A stretch of DNA of 64,000 nucleotides from Methanotrichaceae archaeon (GCA_963803145.1 CAWDLW010000017.1:32001-96000), one strand, 5' to 3'; positions 4,724 through 49,491 are shown, counted from the first letter of the stretch. The notes: a model not told the origin generated them from the sequence alone. Made by a program: numbers and translations.

Positions 4724-4729
4724 ATTTCC

Positions 4730-6297: not shown

Positions 6298-6338
6298 TTA
6301 ATGTCTTCTAAGCCAGGGTCTTCTAAATCATGGTTCCT

Positions 6339-7142
6339 CTAAGGATTGCACGCCTTGCAGGGTTGATATCCTTGCTTTTGTGCCTCCTCGGCATTTGCAA
6401 AGTAGACCTTATTTTCAGGCTTAATCTTTATCGCATAGGAACAATCTGGTCGGTGATATTTTTTGGAAGTTTTGCTTCCTACAAGCCCTCCTACCACGCC
6501 ACTTGAACCAGTTAGGATCTCCGACAAACTGCTTTGTGAGCTGGAGCTGGACTCTTGGACCTGAGTCAAATTATTTGAAGGGGCCTGCTTGGACAAATAA
6601 CCTTTCAGGCTCTCATCAGAAATGACATGAGGTTCTTTTTCACCCAGGGATACGAATACATATTGAACCCCCTGACCTTTATTTGATGCTTCAAACTCGC
6701 CGATGCACCTCCTTGTTCCAGATTCGATGAATCCTTCCGGGCCTGAGATCTCTAAGGTACAGTTATAGGTACCTTGAGGGATCTTTTTGTTCTTAGATAT
6801 CTCAAAATGCTGATCTTTAGTGGGCTCTATATCCATCATCATATACCTTATATCATCAATCCTTTGGCTACCATTCTGAAGTTCGGCATCTATCATAAGA
6901 TAGGGCAGAGAGGCATTGCTCCAGAGTACAATGTCACCCTCTGTTCTAAAAAGATCTTCACTAACCTCTGAGGTGAAATCGATATCTAAACGGCTGGTGC
7001 TGCTTTTCTCCACAGCCAGCTGCGGAGTGCTGCCCATCATGTTGGTTCCGCTCTCTATGCAGCCCATAATGCATAATAGAATTAGAATAAGCGGGAATAG
7101 ACCTAAATACTTGCCACACTTTCTAAAATATCTAAGAGACAA
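6339..7142 (-). CDS. Putative lipoprotein with C-terminal Ada-like metal-binding domain
   Basis: Hydrophobic N-terminus with lipobox-like MGC; Ser-rich linker; GSKTSKKYHRPDC...F...EEA...GYQPCKACNP. Confidence 0.75.
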   Translation of the reverse strand: MSLRYFRKCGKYLGLFPLILILLCIMGCIESGTNMMGSTPQLAVEKSSTSRLDIDFTSEVSEDLFRTEGDIVLWSNASLPYLMIDAELQNGSQRIDDIRYMMMDIEPTKDQHFEISKNKKIPQGTYNCTLEISGPEGFIESGTRRCIGEFEASNKGQGVQYVFVSLGEKEPHVISDESLKGYLSKQAPSNNLTQVQESSSSSQSSLSEILTGSSGVVGGLVGSKTSKKYHRPDCSYAIKIKPENKVYFANAEEAQKQGYQPCKACNP

Positions 7143-7150
7143 TTGGTCAA

Positions 7151-7170
7151 CCCCTTTATTTCCAGTGGAA
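7151..7170 (-). promoter_or_regulatory. Origin recognition box (ORB), reverse orientation
   Basis: Minus strand reads TTCCACTGGAAATAAAGGGG, matching the archaeal ORB consensus with G-string. Confidence 0.7.
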
Positions 7171-7200
7171 CATTTGGGTCAGCATCAACCAAACTCAGCC

Positions 7201-7647
7201 TTACCTTTCCATAGATCGCAGTGCTTTCAAAGCTGCCTCTATGCAATCGAATTGCTTCCTTAGCTTATCCAGATCCTGCTCCCTATCGATGCCGCTTGCC
7301 AATTCCTTCAGCTTGCGAAGAATGGCTTTCCTGAGAGCCGCCTCCTCGACACTAAGCCCTTCTTGTGCCGATGTATCTATATCAGATCTAGCCTTGTCTA
7401 TAGAAGACTCTTCTGTTGGCATTTTCTCTTCTTGAGCGACCTTGCCTTGGTCAGACCCAGAAGATTCATCTTTCATTCCTTTTGCTGTGTCTTCGGCCGC
7501 GCCCCCTTCCCCAAAGGAACACACAGGACATACTACCTGGCCCCTATACCTGAACAGCGGCGCACCGCAACTGTGATGAGTAGCAAGCATTGTGCCCCCC
7601 TGCTCTAGCAGTCTCGTTATCCTTTTCAGCATCTCCTCTTCATCCAT
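7201..7647 (-). CDS. UPF0148 / Sjogren autoantigen-1 family zinc-ribbon protein
   Basis: LLEQGGTMLATHHSCGAPLFRYRGQVVCPVC; start likely MDEEEM at 7647. Confidence 0.85.
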   Translation of the reverse strand: MDEEEMLKRITRLLEQGGTMLATHHSCGAPLFRYRGQVVCPVCSFGEGGAAEDTAKGMKDESSGSDQGKVAQEEKMPTEESSIDKARSDIDTSAQEGLSVEEAALRKAILRKLKELASGIDREQDLDKLRKQFDCIEAALKALRSMER

Positions 7648-7792
7648 GCCTATCACCGATATAGCCACTTTATGAGTTTAGTTATCTTAATCGTTTAATT
7701 ACCATATACGTTTAAATACAACAACTATAACATCACTTCTCAACTAGAACGGATACCATCATTAACCTTTTTCCCTTAGTAAAGGTGATTCC

Positions 7793-8053
7793 ATGACAGC
7801 TGAGGAAACTATTAAGCAATGCGTCGAAGCCTTAGAACGCATTATGAGCGACGATGCCGTCCCACGGAACATCAGACGCTCTGCAGAGAACGTTAAAGCC
7901 ATTCTCCAGGATAAAAGTACGAACGAGGCGATCAAGGCTGCATCTGCCATATCTGTACTTGATGAAATAAGCAATGATCCAAATATACCTCTTCATACAA
8001 GAACTCTTATCTGGAACGTAGCAAGCCAGCTTGAAACAATACCAGTAGGATAA
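7793..8053 (+). CDS. UPF0147 family archaeal protein
   Basis: [10 protein letters not shown]...[26 protein letters not shown]. Confidence 0.9.
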
Positions 8054-8914
8054 GCTATAGTCAGATTCTTATCGGTGTCAAAGCCGCTCTACATCATAAT
8101 CGATTATCTAGATGCCATAAAATGTAACCGCTAGGATCGAGCTGAGAGCCAATTCCGATTTTATAGACTGAAGGCTGAGAGGGGGACCGCATAATTTCCA
8201 CTGGAATCCAAACAGGTCTGGCTATCGGCACTTCGCCAAGACCAAATATAGCATGGTATGACTTCATAGGATTATATACGAGATAGCCAACAGAGACCTT
8301 ATTTATACATGCCTAGCATAAACAGAGCATTTAAGCACTTTCAGACATATCAAAAATTTTTACAGAATCTTCGGCATACGCGTTTGAAGCTTATATCTAG
8401 AAACTCAAATATAAAGCAATGCTCACCGAAGTAGAACGCACTTAGAACGGATGCATATTGGTCAGCAATCTTTGCACACTTCAGCCTTAGCACGCTTTAA
8501 TTAAAGAATCGGGCCTTTTATGTAAATTAGAGTATAAACCACGAGAAATGTGATCCTAAAGCTCTATCTCTTAATGCATAAGAAGCGTTAGCATATGACG
8601 TATCATCGCGAACGGATATACCGATAGCCAGAATTATCCTAAAGCGAGGATAAAATAAGCAAAATATCTTGCCACTTTGGCGCATATGTTATTCAAAATT
8701 AATCAGCCCCATGGAAAGATTTAAGTATAATTGATTGTATACACTTAAATGACTAAATTTATTTTCATAATCAATCAAGCTAAAAGACAAATTTATTTCA
8801 TCTCCATTAGAAACAATGGGGGGGGTGGGTAGCGTTTCCATTGGAAATGGAGGAATGTCACGATAACTCTTAATACAACCTTAACCCAAGGAAAAATGTT
8901 CGAGGGGAATTATC
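8054..8914. other. Probable chromosomal replication origin (oriC)
   Basis: ~860-bp gene-free, partly AT-rich gap before cdc6. Contains TTCCACTGGAA (8196-8206), TCCATTAGAAACAATGGGGGGGG (8803-8825) and TTCCATTGGAAATGGAGG (8836-8853). Confidence 0.8.
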
Positions 8915-31057: not shown

Positions 31058-32866
31058 TTGGTGGTACAAATGAACTCCTGTAGAAGACTAATTGCAGCAC
31101 CATTATGTATAGTCCTGCTCATAGCGTTCGTTGGCATCCAGAGCAGCGCAGGCCAATGTTACACTTTGCCCTCTCCCGATACTGGCGAAGTTCGCATCTT
31201 CGCACAAAGTGTCTGCGGCAGCGTTGATAACGATCCGCCGAACCCCACGGTTTTCACAATAGATACGCCAAGTACAATCACGAAATTAGGCACCTATCAT
31301 TGGAATCATGGCGCTGGGGCAACTCCCGGCACCATCGGGCTAAAGGGCGAGGATGGCACCGTTTATGGGCCGTGGCAAGCCTCAGGCCTGCCGGGCCAGG
31401 GCGGAGTGCCAAATGCAAATTGGGTAGTGACCTTATCGAATGGAGTAGATCTGCCTGCCGGGACCTACGAGGTTATGGATTCAGATCCCTCAACCTGGGC
31501 TTATGGCAGCGAGAGCGGGAATAGCGGAGTAGTATCTGTTGTCGGCCTCAGTGGGAGCAGTGCAAATCATAACGCTGCAGGCCATAATACCGGCAATAAA
31601 AATACGGGACAGCCGCCGTGTGCAGTAGATGCGGTAGACTTTTCTCCAAGGGATCCAACGGATCTGTATCATGCCGGTCCCTTGCTCGTTCCAGGCTCGT
31701 ATAAATTCTATTACGGCAAAAGGACTGGAACCCAAATTGGGCAGCCTGACAGCTGGCAGACTTATGGGCCGGTTGATATTCATGGCGGCAAGTTCTACGT
31801 TTTTGATACCGTAAACGGGGAGCTGAGCGAGCAGGATCCCAAGATGATCAATTCGATGATCAATCAGCCGGGGCCAACCGAATCTCTGGTATGGTACAGG
31901 CTCAGCACACAGAACGCCTATGTGGTCTGCTTCGACGGGCCGCTGAACGGTAATAATGGAGGTATACAGATTGGAGGCCAACAGCCAACTGGTGGCAATT
32001 CACAGGCAATTCGTCTCTTCGGAAGCGTGCCTACAGCAGACTCCTCTACATTTAAATCGAATGTATATCCAGAGGTATCTGTTGACACATCAACATATGA
32101 CAGAACACCATATCACATGGCCACTCCCTATTCTGGAACGGTTACCATTCAGCCGGGCCAGAGATGTTTCCTGGCCGGAGATTCTGCAGGCAAGTCGGGC
32201 TGGAGTGTTGATAACTTCCTCCTCTTCGAGATCCAGACGGGTATGGGGACAAAATATCTATTCTGCGGCGATGCTGATCCTGTCTCTTACAACGGTCAGA
32301 AAGTTCAGCAAGTAGGGCCGAGTTCGTTCAGCTTTGATGCTGGTGAGGTTGATTTAACTTCGTACTTCCCGAAAGGTGTGCCTGTCCAACTCAAAGTTTC
32401 AGCCTTAGACTATGGTGGCATCGGACATGTGAGCGATGTGTACCTGATTATCCAATCTGGCAATACACAAGGAACAAGTTCTGATGATAACGTTGGATCA
32501 TCGACCATCCCATCAGCTGTCACGAATGGGAATGGGGGAATTCAGCTTGCGGGCAGCTGGAATATGGACGGACACCAGGAAGGGTTTAACGACTGGAAGG
32601 CGGATTTAGTTCTCAATAGCGATTCCACTCTAAGATGGACAGAGACTGAAGGGGCAAATGTCGGAGCTACTAGATCTGGAACCTGGCAGTTCGATGGAAC
32701 AACCATCACTATGAGCTGGGTATCGCCTAGCGGAGGAAAGACCGCATGGATTTCTAGAGAGGTAACTAAAGACACCATAAATAGTGGGACTTACACCGTC
32801 GAGAATGCACCAGGCGGGACGTGGGTTGCCACCAGGTCTTATACAGTGGCAAACGAAGAACTTTAA
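31058..32866 (+). CDS. Secreted multidomain beta-rich hypothetical protein
   Basis: Signal peptide; TYHWN..G..PGTIGL...YGPW domain; G/N-rich linkers separating about four domains. Confidence 0.75.
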   Translation: MVVQMNSCRRLIAAPLCIVLLIAFVGIQSSAGQCYTLPSPDTGEVRIFAQSVCGSVDNDPPNPTVFTIDTPSTITKLGTYHWNHGAGATPGTIGLKGEDGTVYGPWQASGLPGQGGVPNANWVVTLSNGVDLPAGTYEVMDSDPSTWAYGSESGNSGVVSVVGLSGSSANHNAAGHNTGNKNTGQPPCAVDAVDFSPRDPTDLYHAGPLLVPGSYKFYYGKRTGTQIGQPDSWQTYGPVDIHGGKFYVFDTVNGELSEQDPKMINSMINQPGPTESLVWYRLSTQNAYVVCFDGPLNGNNGGIQIGGQQPTGGNSQAIRLFGSVPTADSSTFKSNVYPEVSVDTSTYDRTPYHMATPYSGTVTIQPGQRCFLAGDSAGKSGWSVDNFLLFEIQTGMGTKYLFCGDADPVSYNGQKVQQVGPSSFSFDAGEVDLTSYFPKGVPVQLKVSALDYGGIGHVSDVYLIIQSGNTQGTSSDDNVGSSTIPSAVTNGNGGIQLAGSWNMDGHQEGFNDWKADLVLNSDSTLRWTETEGANVGATRSGTWQFDGTTITMSWVSPSGGKTAWISREVTKDTINSGTYTVENAPGGTWVATRSYTVANEEL

Positions 32867-34090: not shown

Positions 34091-34546
34091 ATGCTACAGG
34101 ATATCAAGGTGGTTGAGGTCAAAGAGCAGCCAGTGCTCTCCATAAGAGAAACTGCATCCATGCCGTCCATGCCCGAGAAAATGGGCGAGATATTTTCGGA
34201 GATCTATGCGTTTATGCAGAAAAAGGAAATAGTTCCAGTCGGCCCGCCTTTTGCTTACTGGCACGACATGACCGGCGGTATAGTCGATATGGAATGCGGT
34301 TTTCCCGTCTATGGATCTGCAAAGGGCGAAGGAAGGATAAAGAGCAGCAAGCTGCCCGGAGGCAAAGCTGCAACAGCCTTGCATATCGGACCCTATGATA
34401 AGCTTTCGGAGGCATACAAGGTAGTTGAATCATGGATAAGAGACAATGGATATCAGATCGCAGGGAATCCTTGGGAGTCTTATCTGACCATGCCTGATGT
34501 GGAGCCTTCCAAGATCAGGACTCAGATCTTCTGGCTGGTGAAGTAA
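34091..34546 (+). CDS. GyrI-like small-molecule-binding protein
   Basis: GPPFAY, LPGG, HIGPYDKL, PWESYL. Confidence 0.88.
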   Translation: MLQDIKVVEVKEQPVLSIRETASMPSMPEKMGEIFSEIYAFMQKKEIVPVGPPFAYWHDMTGGIVDMECGFPVYGSAKGEGRIKSSKLPGGKAATALHIGPYDKLSEAYKVVESWIRDNGYQIAGNPWESYLTMPDVEPSKIRTQIFWLVK

Positions 34547-36746: not shown

Positions 36747-39107
36747 CTAAGATTTGTTTCCAAGCGATTTCAGACTATCTCGTACAAATTTCGTATCAGG
36801 ATGATCCTCAGGCAATATTTTCTCATCAATCTTCAGAACTCTCTCAAGATAATCCCTAGCTCGCTCGAGATCACCCATATCTTTCAGAACTAAACCGAGG
36901 TTGCTAACTATCGTGGCAATCATAGGATGATCCTCAGGCAATATTTTCTCATCAATCTTCAGAGCTCTCTCAAGATAATCCCTAGCTTGCTCGAGATCAC
37001 CCATATCTTTCAGAACTAAACCGAGGTTGCTAACTATCGTGGCAATCATAGGATGATCCTCAGGCAATATTTTCTCATCAATCTTCAGAGCCCTCTCAAG
37101 ATAATTCTTAGCTTGATCAAGGTCGCCCAGACCTCCAAGAACCATTCCGAGGTTGCTAGCTATCAAGGCAACATCAGGATGATTCTCAGGCAATATTTTC
37201 TCATCAATCTTCAGAGCTCTCTCAAGATAATCCCTAGCTCGCTCGAGATCACCCATATCTTTCAGAACTAAACCGAGGTTGCTAACTATCGTGGCAATCA
37301 TAGGATGATCCTCAGGCAATATTTTCTCATCAATCTTCAGAGCTCTCTCAAGATAATCCCTAGCTTGCTCGAGATCACCCATATCTTTCAGAACTAAACC
37401 GAGGTTGCTAACTATCGTGGCAATCATAGGATGATCCTCAGGCAATATTTTCTCATCAATCTTCAGAGCTCTCTCAAGATAATCCCTAGCTTGCTTAAGA
37501 TCGCCCAGATCTCTAAAAACCATTCCAAGATTATTAGTTACCGTGGCAACATCAGAATGATCTTCGGGTAAGATTTTCTCATCAATCTTCAGAGCTCTCT
37601 CTAACAAAAATTTAGCATGGGTAAGTTCCCCCCGCCCTCTTAGAAATAATCCTATACGGTTCAAAAGACTGCCTATAACCTCTGGAGATACTTCGAAAAC
37701 CTCGCCATATTCCACTGTGGTCAGAGCATGTGGGAATAATATTGAACATATAGTCCAAGTTCGCACATCCATTGAGTAGTAGGGAAAAGCGTCATGAATT
37801 AATCGTAAGGCGGCTTCAGCCCATTTCTTTCCATCATCGCCCAGCCTTTCTCTCGTTACCATCTGAACCAATCTGTGGATTGACAGATAATCTTCAAAAG
37901 AACTGACTAGAGAGTAGCATCTCAGGACTGCCACGGCATCATCAAACTCTAGTTCATCGGCTAGAGAAGGTAATGGATCAGGCAACTTATTGGCTAGCTC
38001 CGTCAATAAAAGTCTAGGAATATTTTCAGGAGCAAGAAATGAGCAGAGATTGAGCAGATTAGCGCCTATAAGCGAAACTTCTTGAACCTCCTGGAAAGCG
38101 AGCTTCCAGGTAGTGGCGATAGTTGCAGGATAATCTTTAGGCTTGCCCCTCTCGAGAACTTCGATCTGATATTTCTGGAATCGTTTTAAGTAGTCTCTAA
38201 ATGTTATACCCTTCTCCTCAATATAGGCTCCAGCCTGCTCCAGGGCCAGTGGTAAATTTTCCAAATCCTTTGCCAAATTGCTTATGGTGCCATCATCCTT
38301 TTGTCCTGTGCGCTTTTCTAAAAATTCTATAGATTCTTCATCGCTGAAAACCTGAATTTGTAATGGTTTTGCCGTACTACCCCAGTTTGGATTACGGGAA
38401 GTTATTATCACATGGCCTTCGCCGAATCTGGGTAGATAATCTCCAAGATCGTCCGGTTTAATAGCGCTATCAAAGATCATCAGCCAACGTGGGTTCTTTT
38501 CCAACCATCTTCTTACGGCTCTAACGATTTCGATCTGATCCTTGAGGTCTTTTTCAGGTAAGTGTAGCTCAACAGCGAGAAGAGCATAATCTGACGCGAG
38601 CGTAGCAGGTTCTGATCGCACCCACCATATGACCTTATAATCGGCCATATGGCGGTAAGCGTACTCTACTGCAATCTGTGTTTTACCTACGCCACCCATG
38701 CCCCAGAGGGCCTGCTTCCATGCCTCAGGTTGAGCGGAAGTCAGGCATGATCTGAGTTCTGCCATGATTTGCTCACGGCCTGTGAAGTTGCGATTGCGGA
38801 ATTGAGCTATATTCCAGATCTCTGGAAGCATTTTCTGCAAATTGGCAAGTCCACTCTCTTTCTCCTTCAAAAGGCCAGTAAGATGTTCCCTATCCGCTGT
38901 GCTGATTTTTGCCTTCAACTCATCGTATTCCTGTTGGTAATTTGCCGCGGATTCCTTTTGGCGTTCGATCTCCTGGTGAAATCTGGCTAGATCTCTTGGA
39001 TCGTTCGAATATCGCAGTTCATCCTCATACTTCTTGAGGAGGTCTAGATCCTTCTTAATATTATCTTCGAGATCTTGAAGTCGTTTGTTAATCAGATTCG
39101 CTTCCAT
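36747..39107 (-). CDS. NLR-like STAND ATPase: N-terminal helical domain + NB-ARC + TPR
   Basis: RNRNFTGRE, Walker A GMGGVGKT, Walker B LMIFD, IITSR, LPLALEQAGAYI, IHRLVQ; 42-aa TPR repeats. Confidence 0.92.
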   Translation of the reverse strand: MEANLINKRLQDLEDNIKKDLDLLKKYEDELRYSNDPRDLARFHQEIERQKESAANYQQEYDELKAKISTADREHLTGLLKEKESGLANLQKMLPEIWNIAQFRNRNFTGREQIMAELRSCLTSAQPEAWKQALWGMGGVGKTQIAVEYAYRHMADYKVIWWVRSEPATLASDYALLAVELHLPEKDLKDQIEIVRAVRRWLEKNPRWLMIFDSAIKPDDLGDYLPRFGEGHVIITSRNPNWGSTAKPLQIQVFSDEESIEFLEKRTGQKDDGTISNLAKDLENLPLALEQAGAYIEEKGITFRDYLKRFQKYQIEVLERGKPKDYPATIATTWKLAFQEVQEVSLIGANLLNLCSFLAPENIPRLLLTELANKLPDPLPSLADELEFDDAVAVLRCYSLVSSFEDYLSIHRLVQMVTRERLGDDGKKWAEAALRLIHDAFPYYSMDVRTWTICSILFPHALTTVEYGEVFEVSPEVIGSLLNRIGLFLRGRGELTHAKFLLERALKIDEKILPEDHSDVATVTNNLGMVFRDLGDLKQARDYLERALKIDEKILPEDHPMIATIVSNLGLVLKDMGDLEQARDYLERALKIDEKILPEDHPMIATIVSNLGLVLKDMGDLERARDYLERALKIDEKILPENHPDVALIASNLGMVLGGLGDLDQAKNYLERALKIDEKILPEDHPMIATIVSNLGLVLKDMGDLEQARDYLERALKIDEKILPEDHPMIATIVSNLGLVLKDMGDLERARDYLERVLKIDEKILPEDHPDTKFVRDSLKSLGNKS
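36790..37605 (-). repeat. 126-bp near-identical tandem repeats encoding TPR units
   Basis: GGATGATCCTCAGGCAATATTTTCTCATCAATCTTCAGA or variants at 36799, 36925, 37051, 37177, 37303, 37429, 37555. Confidence 0.93.
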
Positions 39108-39825
39108 GGCCCCGTCCGAATTTTGCCTTCAAGGCTTCCCAAGCTGACTGGAGATTCATGCCTACTTTAAGCTCGATTTCACCTTCGTATGACAGGATCA
39201 GGGGTATGATGGGGATAGTAAGTTTTAGCTTGTGGCTCGAACCTACTGCGGGATCATCCAGAATTTTTGAGATTTTTTCGGTTTGTTCAAGTATCTTAGG
39301 ATCAACTGCTTTATTTTTCATTATGTCTGCGACGACTTTCTGGAGGGCCTCCAGAGTATCTCTCATGTCTTGTTCTGAAATACAGTTAGCTTCAAGCGCA
39401 TCCCAGATGCATTTTACAGTCTCCAATTGGTTCTGATTCAACTCATTGATAAGGGAGGAAATTATCCTTTGTTCACTTGCATTGAAGCTCTGTAACATGG
39501 TTTGGCGCAAATCGACTAGTTGATCCGCCATAGCTCTTTGGCCTGATTGAAGCTCTGTCAACATATCCTCGATATGCTCCAAGCGATCAGCAAACCCAGT
39601 TACCTTTTCTGGAGGTTCGCTGGCTACTTGCTTTCGTAGATCGTCGTATTCTTTATTGTAGCGTTTTGCTGAATCTCTCTGACGCACAATTTCCCGGCGA
39701 ATCCTAGCCAGCTCTCTAGGATCGTGCGCATACCGTTCCTCATCTTCGTAAGCCTTAAGCAGCTCCAAATCTTGGAGGACATTCTCCTCCAGATCCTTGA
39801 GCCGAGTTTGTATCGCAGTATCCAC
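39088..39825 (-). CDS. Helical protein sharing its N-terminal domain with the adjacent NLR; putative adaptor/effector
   Basis: 35/59 identities with the NLR N-terminus; overlaps the NLR start by 20 nt; GGGAGG SD; C-terminal KLKLTIPIIPLILSYEGEIEL. Confidence 0.8.
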   Translation of the reverse strand: MDTAIQTRLKDLEENVLQDLELLKAYEDEERYAHDPRELARIRREIVRQRDSAKRYNKEYDDLRKQVASEPPEKVTGFADRLEHIEDMLTELQSGQRAMADQLVDLRQTMLQSFNASEQRIISSLINELNQNQLETVKCIWDALEANCISEQDMRDTLEALQKVVADIMKNKAVDPKILEQTEKISKILDDPAVGSSHKLKLTIPIIPLILSYEGEIELKVGMNLQSAWEALKAKFGRGHGSESD

Positions 39826-40332
39826 TCAATCTCCCTCCCAAACTAGGCCGTTGTTAGTATAGAACTTATCATTATACTTATAAATGCCGCTATTGTAAAA
39901 TATGCAAGTAATTGCTGTTATAGTGATTTTGAGTATATCAACTCAATCACGGTAGACTACCAAGGATTTATTATAGTGTTTCCTAGAACTTTTTGCCCAA
40001 TAGAATAAGCGTTATGTAAGCCGATCGCTGAAAAGATTTAGGCAAGAAGTCAGGAGAATCACTATAATTAAGAACTGTGAACCAAAGCTATCTTTGAGAA
40101 TTAGAATCATTATGAGCTGTTCATAACTTAACCTTTATTTAGTGGGAAAATATTCAGCCAATCCCGCACACAATTTCATCCAACTTGATCTTGCATCCTT
40201 AAGTTATCTCACTGCTGGATATTATCGTATTTTGCTAATTTATAATATTGAGAATGTTCTTGTCGTAAGTTCATTTTGTATAGCGGCAGGCAAATATATA
40301 TCATTGCCAACACTAAAAGCTGAAATCTATCT

Positions 40333-43300
40333 CTAATTTACTTCAACTCTGCTGTTCCCAAGATCGTCCTCAATAACGTTTATGGTGTTATCAAACTGCC
40401 CCTGGACATCGCTTATGTGGCTGATGGCAATTATCTGCGGGAATCTCTCTTGCAGGGAGCGAAGCATATTGATCATCTTCTCCCTGTGCTCCAAATCCTG
40501 GCTTCCGAATATCTCATCCAAGATCAGGAAGGAATAGCTTTCGCCATCTGGGGAGAAGCGCATCAGATACTCACTTATGGCCACACGCACAGAGACTGCT
40601 ATCATATCAATCTCTCCACCGGAGTAGCGTGAGATCGTGTAGTATTCTCCGCCATCCTCTACAAGGATATTAAAATCATCATCAATTTTTAGCAGGCTAT
40701 ATTTGCCGCTTACTTCCTCCAGGATCAGACCTGCAGTATAGGCTATATCATCTCTAATCCTGATTAAAATATGGTCCATGAATCTATTGACTACGCTTCT
40801 TGTAACATCGACCACTTGCAGCTTTCTGTTAGTTTCCGCCAGCTCTTTCTCATACTCCTTCTTCCGTTCGGCATCTCCCTCTAGCCTCTGCAAATCACTC
40901 TCTAGTACCCTGAGACGGACTTCGCTGCTCGATGTCTCCTTTCTAGCGGCCTCAAGACTTGCTTCTGCATCCTCTAAGGCCGTTCTTATAGCTCTGTGTA
41001 ATTCGTTGCTATAGCCCAGCAAGAAAATTTGCTTTTTTGCCTCGTTTAGCTCATATTCCAGCTCGCTTAGGTCTTCTGCAGCATCAGCCAGCCTCTCCCT
41101 GAGTTCCTTCTCGGAAGCGATCTTGAGCCTGATCTTCTGGGCCATCTCGTCGGCCTTTGCCAGGGTTCTGCTCTCTTGCGAGAGATTATCGTATTCAGCA
41201 GGATCGAAGCCCAGATCTTCAATTGACCCTTGGATGCTTTTGATCGTGCTCTCAAGCTTTTTGAGCTCTATTTTCATGCCACTGATCTTTTCTTCAATTC
41301 GAGGAATCTCTTGCACACTTCTTGTAAGGATTTCAAACTTGTTATGGGCTGGCGCGAGATCTACAAGACGCTTCTTTTGAGACGCGTAATCAGCCTCTAC
41401 ATATCCAAGTGCCTTGATAATTTGGCCGATCTCTTCGAGCTTCTTGAGAGCAGCTTTTTTCTCATTTCTGATACCCTCAAGCTCCGTCTCTCTCTTCGGC
41501 AGCTCCTCAAGCCTAAATGCGAGGCTTCTATGTTCCTCAACGAGGGGGATAATGTCTTCAATCGATTTTTGTAGCTCACCGAATTGCTTGGGATCAAAGC
41601 TTACATCGCCGAGTTTAGTAATTGCCTTTGTAATCTCTTTCAGCTCAGATCTTGCTTCGTAAATCTGTGATTCAAGGCTTCGCGTGCTGGCAAAAAGCTC
41701 TGCACGCCTGCTCCTTTTTGCATTCAGATCATCAAAAGCTATCTTAAGTTTGCTTCTGGCCGAGGATACGCCGTTAATTTTCTCGGTTTGTAATTGCATT
41801 CTCTTTTTCAGCTCAGTGGCACGCTCATTGGCACTATTGCAGGCAAGCTCGTACTTTTGGACAAGCTTGACATATTGCTCTCCAAGCGGCCTCTCGCAGG
41901 TCGGGCAGTTGCTGTCTTTTCCAAGGGATTTCATCCTTGCAAGGTTCTGCAAGGCGTCAATTCTCTGGGACTCCTCGATTGCCAGTTTGCCCTTCAGATC
42001 TGCAAGGCCATTGTTCAGGTCCATCCCCAGTCTATCGAGGTCAACGTCCTGTCTTTTAAGCTCAGCATCCCTTAGAGTAAGATCTCCCAAGAATGCAAGA
42101 TCCTTTTTTATAGAGGCAATTTGGTCCTCCAGCTTTTGAATGCGAGCCTCCAGGTTTGACCTCTGGGCATTCAGGGAATCGAGCTCCTTCTGCAGCTCCT
42201 TCTGGCGCGACGCGTGGATAAACTCCTTTTGCAGTTGCTCGCATTTCTCCTTTAAGGGCTGGATCTCAGAAAGGCGGTCTTTCGCCAGCAAGATCTTCCT
42301 GACAGCCTTCTCGGCGCGAGTGGCATTTGCCTGGATGGATTCAAGCCTTATCTTTTCTCCATTTAGGTGCGTTTGGAGCTCCATGTGCCTGTCCCTTAAT
42401 GCTTCAAGCCGTTGGTAGCTTGCTGTAGTTTCCTGATATTCCGTCTCCATAGGCCTGATTTTATCTAAGGCGGATCTGTCCTGTTTAAGGGCCTCAAGCT
42501 TCTTCTCCTGCTCTGCAAGGGACCTTCCGGCCAGATCCAGCTCAGCTCGGGCTTTGATCATCATCTGTTGCAGGCCGTCATGCTCCTTCCGCTTTGGCTC
42601 GATCTCCTCCAGTCTCACTTTCACGAAATCAAGCCTCTTCAAGTCCGGCTCGAGCTCTGAAAGAGTTCTCTTCGAGCTCTCAATTTCATCGATCCTAGCT
42701 CTATCGGCATTGATTGCCCTTTTCTTTTCTAATGCCTTCGATTCTATACCCAATATCTTCTGTGCCAATAGGTCATTGTACCGCTGTTTCTCTATTTGTT
42801 CATCAAGCTCGCGTTTTCTTTTCTCGGCCTCTGCAGCAAGTTTCGTTTCGATCTCTCTGAAGCTGGATAGCTCGGTCCTGGCAGAGGCGATGCTTTTCGA
42901 TATATTCTCTATCTTAGCATCGATGTCACCAAGCTCTGCAAGGGCGCCTCCAAGCCTGTTCGACTGATCTTCAAGCTTACGCAGGTCGGACTTTATCAGC
43001 TCCATTGATCTCTCTCTCACTTCATCCAGACCTAGAAGCTTCAGCAGGTATTCCCTCTTGCCAGTTCCCCCTTCCTTCAGAAGGTTGTCGAGATCCTTTT
43101 GTCGGGCATAAAATGTCCTCATGAAATCCTGGTAGCTGATCTTTAAAATCTCCTCCAATTTTAGATCAACATCTCTTGATCCCATGGCTACCCTATGTCC
43201 ATCTAGATCGATCGCAGCCTCAGCCGATAGGCTCTTTCCCTTCATTGCCCGAAGGATGGTGATCTCCTGTTTTCCGTGGTTAAGGCTGAGGGAGACCTCG

Positions 43301-43512
43301 ACTGATTCGGTATCCTTAGCACTGGAATTTTTTATGAGATCTCTCTTGATTGCAGATGCTTTGCTGCCGTAAAGAGCCCATGCTATGGCCTCGACGATGG
43401 TACTCTTTCCAGAGCCGTTCATGCCAACAATTCCCGTGAGACCGTCCTGAAAATTTATCTCAGCGCGCCGGTATTTTTTAAAATTGCGCAAAACTAGTCT
43501 ATTAAGGTGCAT
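40333..43512 (-). CDS. rad50: Rad50/SbcC DNA repair ATPase
   Basis: GMNGSGKST, long coiled coil with CPTC zinc hook, YSGGE, LILDEIFGSQD, ISH. Confidence 0.95.
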   Translation of the reverse strand: MHLNRLVLRNFKKYRRAEINFQDGLTGIVGMNGSGKSTIVEAIAWALYGSKASAIKRDLIKNSSAKDTESVEVSLSLNHGKQEITILRAMKGKSLSAEAAIDLDGHRVAMGSRDVDLKLEEILKISYQDFMRTFYARQKDLDNLLKEGGTGKREYLLKLLGLDEVRERSMELIKSDLRKLEDQSNRLGGALAELGDIDAKIENISKSIASARTELSSFREIETKLAAEAEKRKRELDEQIEKQRYNDLLAQKILGIESKALEKKRAINADRARIDEIESSKRTLSELEPDLKRLDFVKVRLEEIEPKRKEHDGLQQMMIKARAELDLAGRSLAEQEKKLEALKQDRSALDKIRPMETEYQETTASYQRLEALRDRHMELQTHLNGEKIRLESIQANATRAEKAVRKILLAKDRLSEIQPLKEKCEQLQKEFIHASRQKELQKELDSLNAQRSNLEARIQKLEDQIASIKKDLAFLGDLTLRDAELKRQDVDLDRLGMDLNNGLADLKGKLAIEESQRIDALQNLARMKSLGKDSNCPTCERPLGEQYVKLVQKYELACNSANERATELKKRMQLQTEKINGVSSARSKLKIAFDDLNAKRSRRAELFASTRSLESQIYEARSELKEITKAITKLGDVSFDPKQFGELQKSIEDIIPLVEEHRSLAFRLEELPKRETELEGIRNEKKAALKKLEEIGQIIKALGYVEADYASQKKRLVDLAPAHNKFEILTRSVQEIPRIEEKISGMKIELKKLESTIKSIQGSIEDLGFDPAEYDNLSQESRTLAKADEMAQKIRLKIASEKELRERLADAAEDLSELEYELNEAKKQIFLLGYSNELHRAIRTALEDAEASLEAARKETSSSEVRLRVLESDLQRLEGDAERKKEYEKELAETNRKLQVVDVTRSVVNRFMDHILIRIRDDIAYTAGLILEEVSGKYSLLKIDDDFNILVEDGGEYYTISRYSGGEIDMIAVSVRVAISEYLMRFSPDGESYSFLILDEIFGSQDLEHREKMINMLRSLQERFPQIIAISHISDVQGQFDNTINVIEDDLGNSRVEVN

Positions 43513-44644
43513 CCAGCGCCTCTGTGTTGTGTGCAGCCACGACCTTCTTTATTAGCCCCGTTCCATAGGCCGTGACATCATCCTTTATCGCTTTGGGTAT
43601 TGCATTTCGCACAGCCTCTTCCTCCAGAAACTTTATGAACTCCTTATGCAGATTGAGTGAATCCACAGGCTCACTATGGCACTCGTTTTCATCAGCATAC
43701 TCAACCTTTATCTTGAGGTAAATGGCAGGTGCGCTAAGCCTATTGAGCCTGATTTGGCTGATATTCCTGTAAGCGGCCTTGTTCACGTTTTTGAGGTTGA
43801 TGCGTGCTATCTTTCCCTCAATTGCTCCATCGCCGCAGATGCTCATCAGCTCCTCAGCGATCTCCTCGGAGGATAATCCCACGCAATCAACAGCCGGATA
43901 ATCGATCATATACTTCGGCCTTACGCACACTGGCTCGGCCTCGCCCTTTTCAAGATCGACCAGAAGCATGCCCTTGCTATCGGCAGCTTCACCGAAGTTG
44001 AAGTACTCTATTGAGCCGCTATACCAGGCATTCTCGGCGATCTTTGCTTGGGCATGGTAGTGGCCTAGAGCAATGTAATCAAAGTCTCTCTTGAGCAGGC
44101 TATCCTTAAGCTCGTGCTCTCCTACAGTTCTTAATTTCTTGTTGCTTAAGGATTCTATCATGCCGTGCATGACGAGTACATCCCGCCCTGATATTTCGAT
44201 CTTGCCGAACTCCTCCATGTACTCTTGAGGATCTAAACAAAAAGGGATACAATGAAAGAAGTGATCTCCGATCTCAAAGCGCTCATATTGATATTTGCGA
44301 GCGATATTGACGCCTCTCGACCCTTCATAAATAACGAATGGACTTGTCCCTGCGAAGCCTTTGGGAGCATCGTGATTGCCGCTGATGATTACGATCGGAA
44401 TGCCTGCATCTTTAAGCTTTTCCAAGCCCTGTTTGAAGATATAGAGGGGCCTGATTCTTGGCCTGACATAGTGGAAGACGTCTCCTGCATGAACCACTGC
44501 ATCTGGCTTCAGTTCTATTATCTTGTCCACTGCCTGCTCGAAGCCAGTATAGAACATCTCTTCCACCAGGTTTCTTCCGTTTCTATCAACCCTATTGTAG
44601 CTGGAGAAGCCTAAGTGGGAATCAGCCATGTGGATTATCTTCAA
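43502..44644 (-). CDS. mre11: Mre11/SbcD nuclease
   Basis: ADSHLG, AGDVF, SGNHD, HG, ALGHYH, YSGS. Confidence 0.95.
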   Translation of the reverse strand: MKIIHMADSHLGFSSYNRVDRNGRNLVEEMFYTGFEQAVDKIIELKPDAVVHAGDVFHYVRPRIRPLYIFKQGLEKLKDAGIPIVIISGNHDAPKGFAGTSPFVIYEGSRGVNIARKYQYERFEIGDHFFHCIPFCLDPQEYMEEFGKIEISGRDVLVMHGMIESLSNKKLRTVGEHELKDSLLKRDFDYIALGHYHAQAKIAENAWYSGSIEYFNFGEAADSKGMLLVDLEKGEAEPVCVRPKYMIDYPAVDCVGLSSEEIAEELMSICGDGAIEGKIARINLKNVNKAAYRNISQIRLNRLSAPAIYLKIKVEYADENECHSEPVDSLNLHKEFIKFLEEEAVRNAIPKAIKDDVTAYGTGLIKKVVAAHNTEALDAP

Positions 44645-44691
44645 GGGGCACCTCTACTCTAATATTGGTTTTCTATTCTGATACCGGCTTT

Positions 44692-46302
44692 TTATTCTAA
44701 TACCGGTTTGAATCTTCCTCTGCTTATAAGGCTCTCGTCGGACCTGTCCTCATTCTCCAATCTATGCATATAGTCCTCATACCTGTGGATTCTGGCGGGA
44801 ATAGGAAAAGGTATTTTCAGTGTGCTGATGACTGCTTCTCCAGGCTCAAGTGTCTGGATCTCAATATCCAGCGAGCTCAGATCCTGCTTGGCGGACTCTT
44901 CCAGTTGCGAACGATCATTCCTATCTCCGAGTCCCATGACCACAAGAGTGTTGAACTGCGAAAGAAGTTGCTTGTCTATAAGCTTGGGCTGCTGAGTTAT
45001 GGCGCATAAGCCCACTCCGAACTTCCTGCCTTCGCGGGCGATAGTCTCGAAGCGAGATGTATTGCTGCCCGATCCCAAAACCCTTTGTGCCTCCTCAATT
45101 GTGATGAGGCAGTTTTTCCTATCCGGCTTTCCATCCTCTTTGTATGCATCCAAAATGTAACGAGATAGGACTGAGAGCAAAAACAGCTCGGCACGATCGC
45201 TCATCCTTGGTATGTCCACCAGGACGACCTTGCCGTCCTGCAGATTGGCAAGGATATTTGGCAGGCTGGACCTCTTCTGGATATACTTATTTCTCTCAAG
45301 GACATTCTTTATCCTTCGAACAAGGACTTTAACGGTGGTGTCTCTGAAGCCTTCTTGCACCATTCTATCTAGTCCATCTGCCTTCTGGATATCATCCAGC
45401 CAGCTGTTCGAATCAAATACCCTGGAGATGGCATCCAAGGCATCCCTTTGGGGCGCTGACCACTCATAGAGCAATGCTACATCATCTGGCCGCACTTCTT
45501 CAGTGGAGATGGCTAGGCCCTCAACTCCCGGATCTGATGCATTCTCTTTATCTGTTGAGTAGCAGACGAGGCCATCAGCATATTTCTTGAGATGCGTAAG
45601 CCCCTTCACCAGGCCTTTGCCCTTCAGATATTCGCCATGAGGATCTACTATTAATAAACCGAATTTAGACTCGCCCATAGCTCCCAGCTTCATACATGAG
45701 GCAGCAAAGACCTTCATAAAATTTGATTTCCCCATGCCTGTAGTGGCGAATATTCCCATATGGTGGTCCATTGCTTCGCTATGAATAGCTACTGGAATCT
45801 CTTCCACCACTCGTGAGCCGTTTCTAAGATAGCCGATCTGAATGTCTCCCATGATCTGTTTCAAAAATTTAAACTCATCCTTTTCGGCTCTTGAGACTTT
45901 GGAGAACTTTGTTGGGATGGTACGCGATTTTCTAAATGCTCCGTTCTGAACGCAGCCCAGGGGCTCTGCGATGACGCGGTTGAAGATCTGATCCTGGTCG
46001 AAGAATTGTGTGCCCTTCACTGTTGTATCCCAATTGCCATCATAGTTTGAAGCATGCTGGATATCTAGGACGCGAGCAAGGAAGATCAGCCGTCTATTAT
46101 TCGCATCGTCATAATCCTTAATTGAAAAAATCTGCCCCACCTCGACTCGTTCTGTATCCGGCAAGTCAAAGGGTACGATGAAGTGGTATTCGGTAACGCT
46201 CTTAGAGATGATCCTGTACGCCGTATCTCCTCTCTCTATGATCTTCCTTTTAGGCAAATTGTCTATGCTTTCTGACAGATTTATTTCCCTCACCACAGCC
46301 AC
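44692..46302 (-). CDS. herA: HerA bipolar helicase/translocase
   Basis: HAS-barrel N-terminus, HMGIFATTGMGKS, DPHGEY, IEEAQ, AREGRKFG, TQQP. Confidence 0.92.
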   Translation of the reverse strand: MAVVREINLSESIDNLPKRKIIERGDTAYRIISKSVTEYHFIVPFDLPDTERVEVGQIFSIKDYDDANNRRLIFLARVLDIQHASNYDGNWDTTVKGTQFFDQDQIFNRVIAEPLGCVQNGAFRKSRTIPTKFSKVSRAEKDEFKFLKQIMGDIQIGYLRNGSRVVEEIPVAIHSEAMDHHMGIFATTGMGKSNFMKVFAASCMKLGAMGESKFGLLIVDPHGEYLKGKGLVKGLTHLKKYADGLVCYSTDKENASDPGVEGLAISTEEVRPDDVALLYEWSAPQRDALDAISRVFDSNSWLDDIQKADGLDRMVQEGFRDTTVKVLVRRIKNVLERNKYIQKRSSLPNILANLQDGKVVLVDIPRMSDRAELFLLSVLSRYILDAYKEDGKPDRKNCLITIEEAQRVLGSGSNTSRFETIAREGRKFGVGLCAITQQPKLIDKQLLSQFNTLVVMGLGDRNDRSQLEESAKQDLSSLDIEIQTLEPGEAVISTLKIPFPIPARIHRYEDYMHRLENEDRSDESLISRGRFKPVLE

Positions 46303-46365
46303 CCTTTCATGATTTTCATGACAGCTATCTAGATTTTCAGCTATATTTCAGCTACATTTTCGAAC

Positions 46366-47373
46366 TCACATTTCCATGACCTCATGATAGTCCTGCATCA
46401 GTATTCTGATCTGTGAATCACTTAGGCCCATCCCGCTGAGCATATCCATCAGTTCTAGCTTCAAGAGCGATCCTTCCTGATGTTTTATCCTTATATCCCT
46501 ATGAGCTCTGAAGAGAGAATGTGGGTATCCAAGGCACTCTGCTGAACAGGAGTGTGCGATCAGAGCTCCTAATGTTGAGCCTATATGGTCCGTTAGATAT
46601 GCAGGCGCATCCACCCTAAAGGCGCGTCCAGAACAGCCATCGAACCTTACAATGAAAGTCGTTCCATCCCATTTTGGCAAAGGCTTCACGTTTTTATCTT
46701 TCAGGGAGATGTACCAGGGCAAGCCGGATAAGAAAATGCTACCTGCGTGGCTGGTGTGCTGAACAAATGGCCGTGAGACCCCTTCGCCCCATGATATGGC
46801 GCTGGACTTGCTTACCCCCAGGAGATCGATGCCTTTCTCATTTGCTTCTCTGATGATCCCTTCCAGGATGCTTCTTAGTGGCTCGTAAATATCAAAGCCG
46901 CCATCGTAGAGTATCAGATCTCCAGCGTGGGCGGAAGAGATTGCATCTTTCAGGGCAATGTACTCTTGAAGCTCTCGGAAATAAGTGGTAAGTCTATCCA
47001 GATCCGTTTCCTTCAGAGTGATATCCTTTAGTCCGAAATAACTTTTCAGCTCTCGCTCAAACTGGCTCGCATAATTCTCTCTATCGGCCAGGAAAATATC
47101 GTCGTAGGTAATTACAGTCCTCAGCCATTCTCTGCCTCTGTAAACAGCATAACCTGCGCAGATCTTATTCAGGCTTGCAACAGACCAGTCGCAGACGCGT
47201 ATATTCGATCCGTCTACTGCGAAGATCTGGCCCTCAAAATCGTGCGGCTTTATCTCTATAAAATCATCCTTACGGATGCCGGTCGCTGTACAATACCGAT
47301 CTAAATCACTGATGGAGATATGATCCCTGATTAATTCTGCAATGTCTGCCAGCCTGCCCTTTTCCTCCGACAT
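46366..47373 (-). CDS. nurA: NurA 5'-3' nuclease
   Basis: FAVDGS, ILYDG, GVSKSS, GYP..L..AH; start MSEEKG at 47373; operon context. Confidence 0.9.
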   Translation of the reverse strand: MSEEKGRLADIAELIRDHISISDLDRYCTATGIRKDDFIEIKPHDFEGQIFAVDGSNIRVCDWSVASLNKICAGYAVYRGREWLRTVITYDDIFLADRENYASQFERELKSYFGLKDITLKETDLDRLTTYFRELQEYIALKDAISSAHAGDLILYDGGFDIYEPLRSILEGIIREANEKGIDLLGVSKSSAISWGEGVSRPFVQHTSHAGSIFLSGLPWYISLKDKNVKPLPKWDGTTFIVRFDGCSGRAFRVDAPAYLTDHIGSTLGALIAHSCSAECLGYPHSLFRAHRDIRIKHQEGSLLKLELMDMLSGMGLSDSQIRILMQDYHEVMEM

Positions 47374-48405
47374 CTGTGTAAGGGAGATACGGCAAAGTAT
47401 ATACTGATTCTGGCAGTTATGTACTGTACTCTCCAAGTTTCTCACCAATTTATAATCTCCATTCTATATCAAGTCATATCTTATATCCCTGTTCTCTGAT
47501 TAGATAGAGTAAACCACTATCAGGAACTGGCAAATTAAAGTATTGTAATACATATATAAAGGCATCAATGAATGCTTGAGCCTTTATACTATCTATCATA
47601 TCTCCAATCGTTCTATTTTGTTGATTTCTTTCCACTGGTGGGTTTTTGAGTTCATATAAAACGATAGCTGTCCAGACTGAGAAAACCATCTGAATAAATC
47701 TTTCAATTGATCGTTTTCCTCTTAATTGATAATCCTTGAATCCCAATTTTTGATTTGACTCTCTATGAGCAGTCTCAATATCCCACCTATCCTCATAAAT
47801 AGAAAGGATTTCTACCAAAGATAGTGAACAATTGGTGCTAATAAAGTAGTTGGCGTCACCATTTTTCTTTTTCTTTGAGATGACTAGCTTTACTTTGCCA
47901 ATCTTATCTAAGATGACTTCTTTTTCGATTGCATAATATACCTTCTTCTTGCCGCGAACTTGGACTGTAGTTCTTCTATAATAAATTTCGTCAATCTGAT
48001 TTGCCAAGTCCCTGACCTGAAAGGACATATCCTTATTTATCCATACCTTTTTATCAGACTTAATTTCACAAACGACTTGATGACCTAAGTTCAGGCATTT
48101 AGTTATAAAATCAGCAGAAAACCACCAGCTGTCGAAAACAACATAAAGACTCAAGCCTTTTGGTATTTTTAAGGGCTCGATGATATCTTTATAAGCGATT
48201 TCTATTTTAGTCATGAAATCTTCACTGCTGTCTATCTCTTTAGTATACATTTTTGCTTTATGTGGTATAAATATATCTCTAGATTGGAGGACTGAGGTAA
48301 CAAAGTTGTTACCCATGATATAGTCATCTTTGCAATGATCGTAAAACTTGCCCACGCCATCAGTACATTTCCCTTCCTTTTCATTATATGTATCGTCTAT
48401 AATTA

Positions 48406-49491
48406 TAGGACTTACGCATTTGCCGGAACTTTCTTATAATATGGAGTTTATATTAAATGAGAAATGAGCTGGAGAAAGAGGCATTGAATCCGGCTAAATG
48501 CGATGATCTAGATTACATTCACTTTCTAATTGCATCGATGGATGTTTTTTCCTGCACCGAAGCAGCTAGATGTCAGTTACCACGGGAAAATAATCCATCA
48601 CATGATGCATTTACCCGTCTATTACAAAGACAGCCTCCTGATACGGAAGCGTTATGGGATGAGGTTAAGAAATTCATCGGCACCCAAGACTGTTTCTTAA
48701 TTCTTGACGATACAACATTGGACAAACCCTATGCCAAAAAGATGGATTTAGTCTATCCCCTTTGGAGCGGAAAGCATCATAAAGTAGTAGAAGGAATCAA
48801 TATTACTACATTGCTTTGGACGGATGGGACTCCAATAATTCCAGTTGATTTTCGAGTCTATGATAAAGATACTGATGGCAAATCAAAGAACAATCATTTT
48901 CGCGATATGTTGAGTAAAGCAAACGAACGTGGATTCAAGCCTGATTTTGTTCTTTTTGATAGCTGGTACTCTGGAATAGATAATCTCAAAGCATTAAGGA
49001 AATTCGGTTGGCATTGGTTTACTAGGTTGAAGAAAAATAGATTAGTAAATCCTGATGATACTAAGAATATACCAATTGAGGAAATAGAGATCCCACCACA
49101 AGGCAGAATTGTGCATTTGAAGGCTTACGGTTTTATAAAAGTATTCAAGATTGTCTCCGATGATGGTGACATCGAATACTGGGCGACTGATTCATTGAAA
49201 ATGAAAGAAACGAGGCGAAAAGTATTAAGTAAGCATTCTTGGAAAATCGAAGAATATCACAGAGGGATTAAACAATTCTGCGGAGTTGAGCGCTGTCAAG
49301 CAAGAAAAAGTCAGTCTCAGAGAGCACATATCTCTTTCTCTATTAGAGCATTTCTCAGATTGGAGCTAAATCGACTTATCAAGGGCATAAGTTGGTTTGA
49401 AAGTAAGCGTAGAATTATTAGAAACGCTATTAGCACATACAGAGAATATCCCGATTTCTTATGGTTTATGGGCTCAACTGCGTAAGTCCTA
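48406..49491 (+). mobile_element. IS701-family insertion sequence (inner, apparently intact)
   Basis: TIRs TAGGACTTACGCA / TGCGTAAGTCCTA; TAATTA duplication. Confidence 0.9.
48457..49485 (+). CDS. IS701-family transposase
   Basis: SHDAFTRLL, LILDDTTLDKPY, LFDSWY, WKIEEYHRGIKQ. Confidence 0.92.
   Translation: MRNELEKEALNPAKCDDLDYIHFLIASMDVFSCTEAARCQLPRENNPSHDAFTRLLQRQPPDTEALWDEVKKFIGTQDCFLILDDTTLDKPYAKKMDLVYPLWSGKHHKVVEGINITTLLWTDGTPIIPVDFRVYDKDTDGKSKNNHFRDMLSKANERGFKPDFVLFDSWYSGIDNLKALRKFGWHWFTRLKKNRLVNPDDTKNIPIEEIEIPPQGRIVHLKAYGFIKVFKIVSDDGDIEYWATDSLKMKETRRKVLSKHSWKIEEYHRGIKQFCGVERCQARKSQSQRAHISFSIRAFLRLELNRLIKGISWFESKRRIIRNAISTYREYPDFLWFMGSTA

Follow-up and report, generated by a model that had tools for sequence, protein, structure and literature searches.

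An NLR-like STAND protein and a small three-part protein with a common N-terminal helical domain: a probable adaptor-coupled gene pair in a Methanotrichaceae archaeon

We describe a two-gene module from a Methanotrichaceae archaeon, located in a 64,000-nucleotide stretch of DNA (GCA_963803145.1 CAWDLW010000017.1:32001-96000; hereafter the window, in whose numbering coordinates are given unless another locus is named). A small protein and an NLR-like STAND protein of the NB-ARC-TPR type, encoded by overlapping genes, begin with the same helical domain, here called nd, and we consider it probable that they form an adaptor-coupled pair joined through this domain. The small protein is a three-part cassette in which nd is followed by a helical middle part (mid) and by a short, strongly conserved C-terminal part, the C-motif (cm). 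Together, mid and cm recur in other proteins as a separable module (mid+cm). Archaea that form aggregates or filaments are rich in NLR-like STAND proteins, whose mode of signalling is largely obscure. Since the genome encodes McrA, the host is a methanogen or methanotroph.

A first-pass annotation of the window had proposed an overlapping gene pair, and both open reading frames (ORFs) are present on the minus strand where it placed them (Table 1). The small protein aligns with the NLR by composition-corrected BLASTP at E=9e-24 with 56/141 identities; the first aligned block is 35/60 identical, in good agreement with the 35/59 counted by hand in that annotation, and weaker similarity continues to about residue 140. 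The shared domain is a helical hairpin of ~65 aa, or about 65–95 aa when a third helix is included, with conserved residues R9, L13, L23, Y27, E28, P37, I47, E60 and L64. It is highly charged (13 K+R and 17 D+E among 68 residues) and has no hydrophobic or amphipathic leading helix. The host genome holds exactly two copies of nd, one in the small protein and one in the NLR, and the cassette profile finds no further match there; the small protein is thus the only nd partner of the NLR. The genes overlap by 20 nt in different frames, the ATG of the NLR lying inside the last codons of the small gene, and a Shine-Dalgarno-like run (GGGAGGGAG) is found 5 nt before the GTG of the small gene. This layout suggests a single transcript and coupled translation of the pair. 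The promoter consensus scan upstream of the pair was of bacterial type, which makes it weak evidence for an archaeal host.

Table 1. Coordinates of the gene pair and of the features within it
Feature	Position	Strand	Description and basis
Small gene (cassette nd + mid + cm)	39088..39825	-	245 aa, GTG start; ORF, translation, family alignments, AlphaFold2 model
nd of small protein, residues 1-67	39625..39825	-	helical hairpin, helices 2-32 and 36-68
mid, residues 74-187	39265..39606	-	long helix 3 then four shorter helices; local HMM, model
cm (C-motif), residues 188-236	39118..39264	-	core HKLK-x-x-IPIIP-LILSYEGE ... W; P205 and P208 invariant
NLR-like STAND gene (nd + NB-ARC + DUF7779 + 7 TPR units)	36747..39107	-	786 aa; ORF, Pfam
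nd of NLR, residues 1-68	38904..39107	-	BLASTP, nd profile
NB-ARC NTPase, residues 116-312	38172..38762	-	Pfam PF00931 E=8.3e-11
Walker A GMGGVGKT, residues 136-143	38679..38702	-	within NB-ARC of NLR
DUF7779, residues 347-425	37833..38069	-	between NB-ARC and TPR; Pfam PF25000 E=3.3e-11
Seven 42-aa TPR units, residues 495-786	36750..37625	-	Pfam TPR_10/TPR_12, unit alignment
DNA tandem array beneath TPR units	36798..37601	.	period 126 nt x 6.4 copies, 89% matches
Upstream region of pair	39826..39921	-	Shine-Dalgarno-like GGGAGGGAG and AT-rich TATA-like stretch

The family of the small protein (~235 aa) is best conserved in cm and not in nd. Among 42 aligned sequences the two prolines of the PIIP core are invariant, and L200, K201, I207, L211, Y213, E214, E216 and W229 are conserved in at least 90%. 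An AlphaFold2 model based on this alignment is all-helical (predicted local distance difference test, pLDDT, 87.8; predicted template modelling score 0.70) and combines the nd hairpin with a long third helix (72–111) and seven shorter ones. In the model cm consists of short helices and coil, with block pLDDT values of 95–96 at residues 191–210 and 74–89 beyond. The partner had been described in the first-pass annotation as carrying a hydrophobic C-terminal segment; the segment is present and is the best-conserved part of the family, but the protein is a three-part cassette and not a domain with a tail. The hydrophobic core of cm, LTIPIIPLILS, has a Kyte-Doolittle mean of 2.25 over its 11 residues. 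A transmembrane helix in cm was rejected because this stretch is too short: the best 19-residue mean of the small protein is 1.17, under the level of a transmembrane helix. The segments beside the PIIP core alternate with a strand-type hydrophobic moment of 0.55–0.72 at 170 degrees. A word-based search returned 15 full-length homologues, all unnamed, and the ESM Atlas neighbours are likewise unnamed hypothetical proteins of ~230 aa, mostly labelled Cyanobacteriota (scores 0.90–0.92), with no functional lead. A literature search on C-motif strings returned only unrelated proteomics papers.

In the NLR, the earlier remark that no enzymatic effector is recognisable holds: its assigned domains are NB-ARC, DUF7779 and TPR, and the first ~100 residues have no match in Pfam, NCBIfam or PADLOC. 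The NLR resembles the cassette profile as far as profile position 90. As expected of a STAND NB-ARC protein, it has the Walker A motif, the Walker B aspartate, the sensor arginine and a motif of GLPL type, with repeats behind them. Across 25 homologues G136, G139, G141 and K142 are invariant and T143, D213, R238 and P286 are at least 90% conserved, and judged by its sequence the NTPase looks intact. Three of the seven TPR units are identical at the protein level, and the array that encodes them can also be read at a period of 378 nt (2.1 copies, 94% matches). Such near-identical tandem units recall those of rapidly diversifying NLR sensors.

The shared domain is widespread, with at least 731 cluster representatives found by profile search at E<=1e-3 and 242 at E<=1e-10. 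We applied local hidden Markov models (HMMs) of nd, mid and cm to 150 listed of the 731 representatives and found nd only in 70, nd-mid-cm in 63, nd-mid in 13, nd-nd in 3 and nd-cm in 1. The 64 cm-bearing proteins comprise 27 stand-alone cassettes and 36 proteins with an extension of >90 aa before nd; 6/64 carry >60 aa after cm, five of them also in the extension group and the sixth making up the total. Thirty-three nd-only representatives of at least 250 aa were scanned against Pfam at E<=1e-5. The NTPase and repeat families found were NB-ARC (5), TPR_12 (3), KAP NTPase (2) and HEAT_2 (2), and the other families were GUN4 (3), TIR_2 (2) and FGE-sulfatase, SEFIR, caspase and DUF4384 (1 each). 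The architectures include nd+NB-ARC+DUF7779 with either TPR or a KAP NTPase behind it, nd ahead of a Walker A motif and HEAT repeats, nd+caspase+FGS, REC+nd+caspase and, by eye, nd-nd with a kinase-like region. One protein of 1457 aa (P0018) strings together nd, a KAP NTPase with transmembrane helices, a second nd, NB-ARC and TPR. In another (P0014, 368 aa) a short cassette is joined in frame to a second nd plus NB-ARC. Both may be natural fusions or read-through gene calls.

From these architectures nd would appear to be a terminal coupling tag that resembles the effector-associated domains (EADs) in behaviour. As described in the available text of two studies by Kaur, Burroughs, Iyer and Aravind (PMC7159879, PMC8195603), EAD1-12 and the bDLDs couple STAND, VMAP or GAP1 cores to effectors. 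In those accounts EADs are, like nd, small non-enzymatic alpha-helical domains with one copy on the core NTPase and a second on the product of an adjacent gene, and further copies sit on TIR, caspase, FGS, kinase-like and other modules, which is the same fusion repertoire. Four EAD features are found in nd by behaviour: it occupies the terminus of core NTPases (NB-ARC-TPR, NB-ARC+KAP, and a HEAT-repeat protein with Walker A); it occurs on effector or signalling domains (TIR, SEFIR, caspase, caspase+FGS and GUN4 by Pfam, kinase-like and CHAT-like by eye); a second copy lies in the adjacent gene; and it is small, helical and non-enzymatic. The differences are that nd is a long hairpin with a third helix, spectrin-like at best, and not a six-helix Death-like bundle; that the partner in this pair carries no known effector domain; and that nd is seen most strongly in anaerobic methanotrophic (ANME) and Methanosarcinales archaea. 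Pfam gave no EAD, bDLD or Death-like match to nd (both proteins at E<=1, six nd sequences at E<=10), only coiled-coil noise. Whole-cassette models had no Death-fold (CARD/PYD/DD/DED) match in the PDB at E<0.09. Kinship with EAD7 was rejected when hhalign gave 0.07% probability against one EAD7 stretch, the only EAD compared profile to profile. The first-pass proposal of a sensor coupled to an adaptor or effector partner through a shared domain, by analogy with EADs and death folds, finds good support in comparative genomics as to the coupling of a sensor without enzymatic effector, but the likeness to EADs is one of behaviour, with no Pfam EAD or Death-like match and no significant fold match of the cassette.

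Pairing was recovered wherever nd occurred among 401 genomes sampled across the phylum. Six of these genomes (host included), from 3/122 genera, are nd-positive; all six show exactly two matches, which lie next to each other on one strand, a small ORF followed by a long ORF. In the host's order nd was found in 1/105 genomes. In a Methanosarcinales metagenome-assembled genome (MAG; locus L003) the cassette gene (240 aa) and the nd-NB-ARC-TPR gene (751 aa) overlap by 4 nt and lie in a different context, among pyrB/pyrI-like genes (by eye). We also collected 19 metagenome loci with nd patterns from a four-sequence alignment; they are close relatives, 52–67% identical to the query. Fifteen of the 19 hold two nd genes, and in 14 a cassette gene is directly followed by an nd gene, although for L030, one of the 14, the ORF called upstream comprises mid+cm only. 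The second gene of the 14 encodes Walker A in 11 cases, which are all those where the open frame extends that far. Among the other loci, the pair of L029 is separated by 2.7 kb that hold two further genes, L037 is a divergent pair with one member composed of nd and a CHAT-like protease region (by eye), L024 starts at a contig edge, and L034 and L035 are single fusions whose N-terminal region resembles the DUF4062 fusions (by eye). The neighbourhood survey that the first-pass annotation had called for thus returned adjacent nd pairs in all six genomes and two nd genes at most metagenome loci, and nd is not a domain that stands singly with no paired architecture. A decayed pair is present in a bacterial MAG (L004; module at 5962..7535 of that locus). 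Its cassette gene has two in-frame TAG codons (6217-6219, 6544-6546) and is probably a pseudogene, and its downstream nd gene is cut by an insertion sequence (IS) element with transposase genes at 7529..8453, a second copy of which lies at 4021..4945.

The remainder of the cassette travels independently of nd. Fourteen further genomes of the host's order match the cassette profile only over positions ~73 to 238, without nd, and local HMMs applied to the nine loci with the best scores (L006-L014) detect cm and no nd. In 7/9, mid+cm ends a long frame with self-similar HEAT-like repeats and a helical linker; the frames of L010 and L012 are not long enough to reveal what lies ahead of the module. 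By sequence, the frames look like sensor-plus-output proteins without an NTPase. A mid+cm profile search of longer proteins gave 9 matches among 8000 candidates scored and under-samples architectures. Besides HEAT-repeat proteins, one of which is labelled Methanothrix, these are a TIR protein, a Bacteroidota TIR-TPR protein, two EAD7 proteins, one of them with the label Anaerolineae, and a cassette with a phosphoribosyltransferase domain behind it. Similarly, the 36 cassette proteins that are extended at the front were scanned against Pfam at E<=1e-5 and carry AAA_16 (4), AAA_35, EAD7 and DUF4062 (3 each), Response_reg (REC) and ATPase_2 (2 each), and TIR_2, LDcluster4 (SLOG), Cap17-like_N, HEAT_2, nSTAND3, Guanylate_cyc, EAD1 and bDLD1 (1 each), with nSTAND3 and HEAT_2 joined in one protein. 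According to the available text of a preprint (bioRxiv 10.64898/2026.09.04.749371), DUF4062 has been renamed NIR and shown to be an NADase effector. In six homologues (P0170, P0204, P0227, P0230, P0249, P0266) predicted transmembrane helices start immediately after cm and are followed by an extra, non-cytoplasmic-looking domain of ~100–150 aa. With one or several transmembrane helices directly after the cassette, the C-motif of these six would lie beside the membrane.

The order of events that we infer for the pair begins at the repeats. The TPR array would bind a trigger and the NB-ARC NTPase would oligomerise, which would cluster the N-terminal nd copies of the NLR; the clustered domains would recruit, by nd-nd binding, the nd of the co-translated small protein, and mid+cm modules, the only candidate output of the system, would be brought together. 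A complex prediction of NLR residues 1–115 with the whole small protein, both given as alignments, scored 0.01 against a mark of 0.32 in a run without controls and weighs neither way. We lean towards mid+cm being a non-enzymatic effector or output module rather than a bridge. The cassette occurs in fusions with known EADs and with a Death-like domain, which places it in the position of an effector or signalling module under the EAD principle, and the REC+cassette and STAND-HEAT+cassette proteins otherwise have no output domain, which argues for the cassette as output. More tentatively, mid+cm may act at the membrane, as hinted by the transmembrane helices that follow cm in six homologues and by the hydrophobic nature of cm with its invariant prolines, aromatic and acidic residues; the invariance of cm would equally fit a specific protein contact. 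It is rather unlikely, though worth stating, that mid+cm represents a new class of non-enzymatic cell-death executioner. Under that proposal the resting cassette would pack the PIIP element inside the helical bundle with strand-like segments flanking it, and recruitment to the oligomerised NLR would crowd several cassettes through nd-nd contacts, freeing the PIIP element to attack the membrane. By analogy with known systems, and given the patchy distribution of nd in the order and in the phylum, an immune or conflict role of the pair is likely.

Several observations weigh against this adaptor-coupled reading and the output role of mid+cm. Models of the small protein have no fold relative in the PDB or BFVD, with nothing at E<=0.001: the best PDB matches are spectrin repeats (E=0.09, TM 0.28–0.38), the best BFVD match has E=0.058, and AhlB, BAX and syntaxin appear at noise level only. 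The cassette alignment finds only coiled-coil noise among PDB sequences (best E=0.0067, an ice-binding protein). With no enzymatic signature, fold relative or PDB sequence relative, the output activity of mid+cm is conjectural. Fusions of the cassette to bona fide effectors (TIR, NIR) also occur and suit an adaptor or regulator as well as an effector. The locus lies outside any recognisable defence island, among NurA-HerA-Mre11-Rad50 and metabolic genes, so the neighbourhood gives an immune role no support, and PADLOC returned no Avs or other system match, only a generic TPR model (PDLC01169, E=8.4e-21). The counts are not independent, since most loci and proteins are close kin or come from pattern-limited scans. 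Finally, adjacent EAD copies are expected to be closer to each other than to copies elsewhere, and this is only partly so for nd. The pattern is clear at L004, where the two copies are 56% identical against cross-locus means of 28–32% (maximum 37%) in a comparison with nd copies of 11 other loci or fusions, mostly archaeal. It is weak or absent at the closely related archaeal loci: within-locus identity (51–72%) is only sometimes above cross-locus means (47–61%), the window copies are 51% identical where the cross-locus mean is 47% and the maximum 55%, and those of L003 are 58% identical within the locus and 60% across loci.

We compared the pair with other systems in which an NLR works with a partner. 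In animal inflammasomes a sensor NLR recruits a downstream component through a homotypic helical adaptor. The same logic applies to bacterial CARD-like-domain NLR systems in the available text of PMC13236601. Differences from CARD/PYD systems are that we found no fold or sequence relation to them and that the locus has no protease or gasdermin. Bell/BASS pairs, as far as the available text of Dyrka et al. (bioRxiv 10.1101/2020.01.06.895854) describes them, carry a beta-prone motif of ~25 aa at the C-terminus of the effector and at the N-terminus of the NLR. They are alike in having a small gene that directly precedes, and overlaps, a collinear NB-ARC-TPR gene, a short shared terminal sequence, TPR repeats with high internal conservation, and occurrence in Methanosarcinales. 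They differ in that the shared element described here is N-terminal in both proteins, ~65 aa long, helical and charged, and in that the small protein is unrelated to the Bell-like protein of the same genome (locus L019): kinship of mid+cm with the latter was rejected at an hhalign probability of 0.4%. The body of the NLR from NB-ARC to TPR is like that of the FxSxx-COOH system, matching NCBIfam NF040586 at 475.6 bits (cut-off 300) over residues 104–460 plus the repeats, and by score it groups with FxsT-type AP-ATPases; the N-terminal ~100 residues lie outside the model. The FxSxx-type AP-ATPase described in the available text of PMC7159879 has an N-terminal TIR and follows a peptide-processing operon. 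No radical-SAM/SPASM maturase or FxSxx peptide gene was present among the scanned neighbours of our pair, a scan that left unsearched the 151-aa ORF at 34091..34546 and the rest of the genome.

The strongest alternative, which we nevertheless regard as unlikely, is that the small protein is a bridging adaptor or regulator in the manner of ASC or FADD, with nd bound to the NLR and mid+cm bound to another protein, or that it holds the NLR inactive. It fits the lack of enzymatic features in a cassette that is often fused to effectors or signalling enzymes (TIR, DUF4062/NIR, SLOG, cyclase), and near-invariance in so short a C-motif would sooner be expected at a specific protein contact than in a generic membrane segment. 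Moreover, at L019 a protein that by eye resembles the linker found before mid+cm in the HEAT-repeat proteins of relatives ends in a BASS-like signalling motif where those proteins have mid+cm. Against this, the genome has no other nd or mid+cm copy and hence no homotypic downstream partner; the fusions of EADs and of a Death-like domain place the cassette in the effector position, and the REC and STAND-HEAT proteins would be left without an output domain were it a bridge.

It is very improbable that the NLR carries its own executioner in the N-terminal helical domain, in the way of plant CC-NLR resistosomes, with the small protein, which shares this domain, serving as helper, decoy or inhibitor. 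The domain is helical and directly precedes NB-ARC, and weak matches were obtained to RPW8 (E=0.061, in 1/6 nd sequences) and, over NLR residues 3–70, to alpha-xenorhabdolysin (E=0.015, far below the cut-off), but both are at noise level, the high charge of nd and the missing hydrophobic or amphipathic leading helix do not suit such a role, and its occurrence as a terminal tag on caspases, TIR, FGS, GUN4 and KAP NTPases suits an adaptor. We give still less credence to the C-motif being an amyloid-like or beta-hairpin switch by which the pair templates as Bell/BASS-NLR pairs do: the strong strand-type moment of the segments flanking PIIP and the BASS-like pairs at other NB-ARC loci of this genome would agree with it, but the C-motif is absent from the NLR, the part shared by the two proteins is the N-terminal helical domain, the motif contains two invariant prolines and is modelled as short helices, and mid+cm has no kinship with the Bell-like protein. 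That the two proteins have no functional coupling, their similarity being a relic of local duplication or of the coiled-coil composition of charged, heptad-like helices that give only coiled-coil noise in Pfam, is largely refuted by the composition-corrected BLASTP score, by the conservation of specific nd residues and by retention of the pair across differing genomic contexts and two domains of life.

The analysis identifies two modules without Pfam, NCBIfam or PADLOC annotation, the coupling domain nd and the output-module candidate mid+cm. Coupling logic of the EAD style is already known; the adaptor family, the output module and the archaeal setting appear to be undescribed. We found no description of nd or mid+cm in the literature searched, although the supplements of PMC7159879, PMC8195603 and PMC13581612 might already list them, and PMC7159879 mentions in its main text, without describing it, a "novel uncharacterized effector NEFF1". 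If confirmed, the two modules would provide a new adaptor and a candidate executioner common to prokaryotic conflict systems and eukaryotic innate immunity, and the pair offers a compact two-gene test system from ANME and methanogen lineages. To our knowledge, no such system has been studied in these lineages. Were mid+cm indeed an executioner released by crowding, helical-adaptor crowding would constitute a third firing route of prokaryotic NLRs, beside Bell/BASS templating and the CARD-protease-gasdermin route, and one common to ANME and methanogenic archaea, cyanobacteria and Chloroflexi.

Around the pair, a family scan of five upstream and four downstream proteins found NurA, HerA, Mre11, Rad50, two transposases, an oxidoreductase, a flavodoxin, an ornithine cyclodeaminase and one protein without assignment. 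A Rad50-like gene lies ~500 nt upstream of the small gene, with an AT-rich stretch between them; it belongs to a complete NurA-HerA-Mre11-Rad50 row (40333..47448) on the same strand, immediately upstream of the pair. Beyond this row, ~8 kb from the pair, are two DDE transposase genes (47474..49485) in a region of lower G+C (0.36–0.38 at 48–52 kb). An ORF of 602 aa on the plus strand (31058..32866) has no Pfam family at E<=1e-5.

The host genome encodes six NB-ARC genes that use at least three coupling schemes, which makes it useful for comparing such schemes. Two of the other loci, L019 (G000:C12:180500-187000) and L016 (G000:C34:3500-9800), have NB-ARC genes with small upstream genes whose products bear a hydrophobic N-terminal helix; they look like Bell/BASS-type pairs, since a C-terminal G/N/Q-rich motif of ~25 aa recurs at the N-terminus of the NLR. 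L019 has in addition a 219-aa ORF ending in that motif, located after a 214-aa HEAT-like ORF. At L018 (G000:C15:367000-373500) a 403-aa caspase-like gene overlaps the NLR and transposase pairs occupy the flanks (by eye). Directly fused N-terminal regions occur in the 903-aa NLR of L017 (G000:C25:51000-58500), where the region has no assignment, and in the 691-aa NLR of L015 (G000:C30:114500-119580), where it looks phosphoesterase-like, both as judged by eye.

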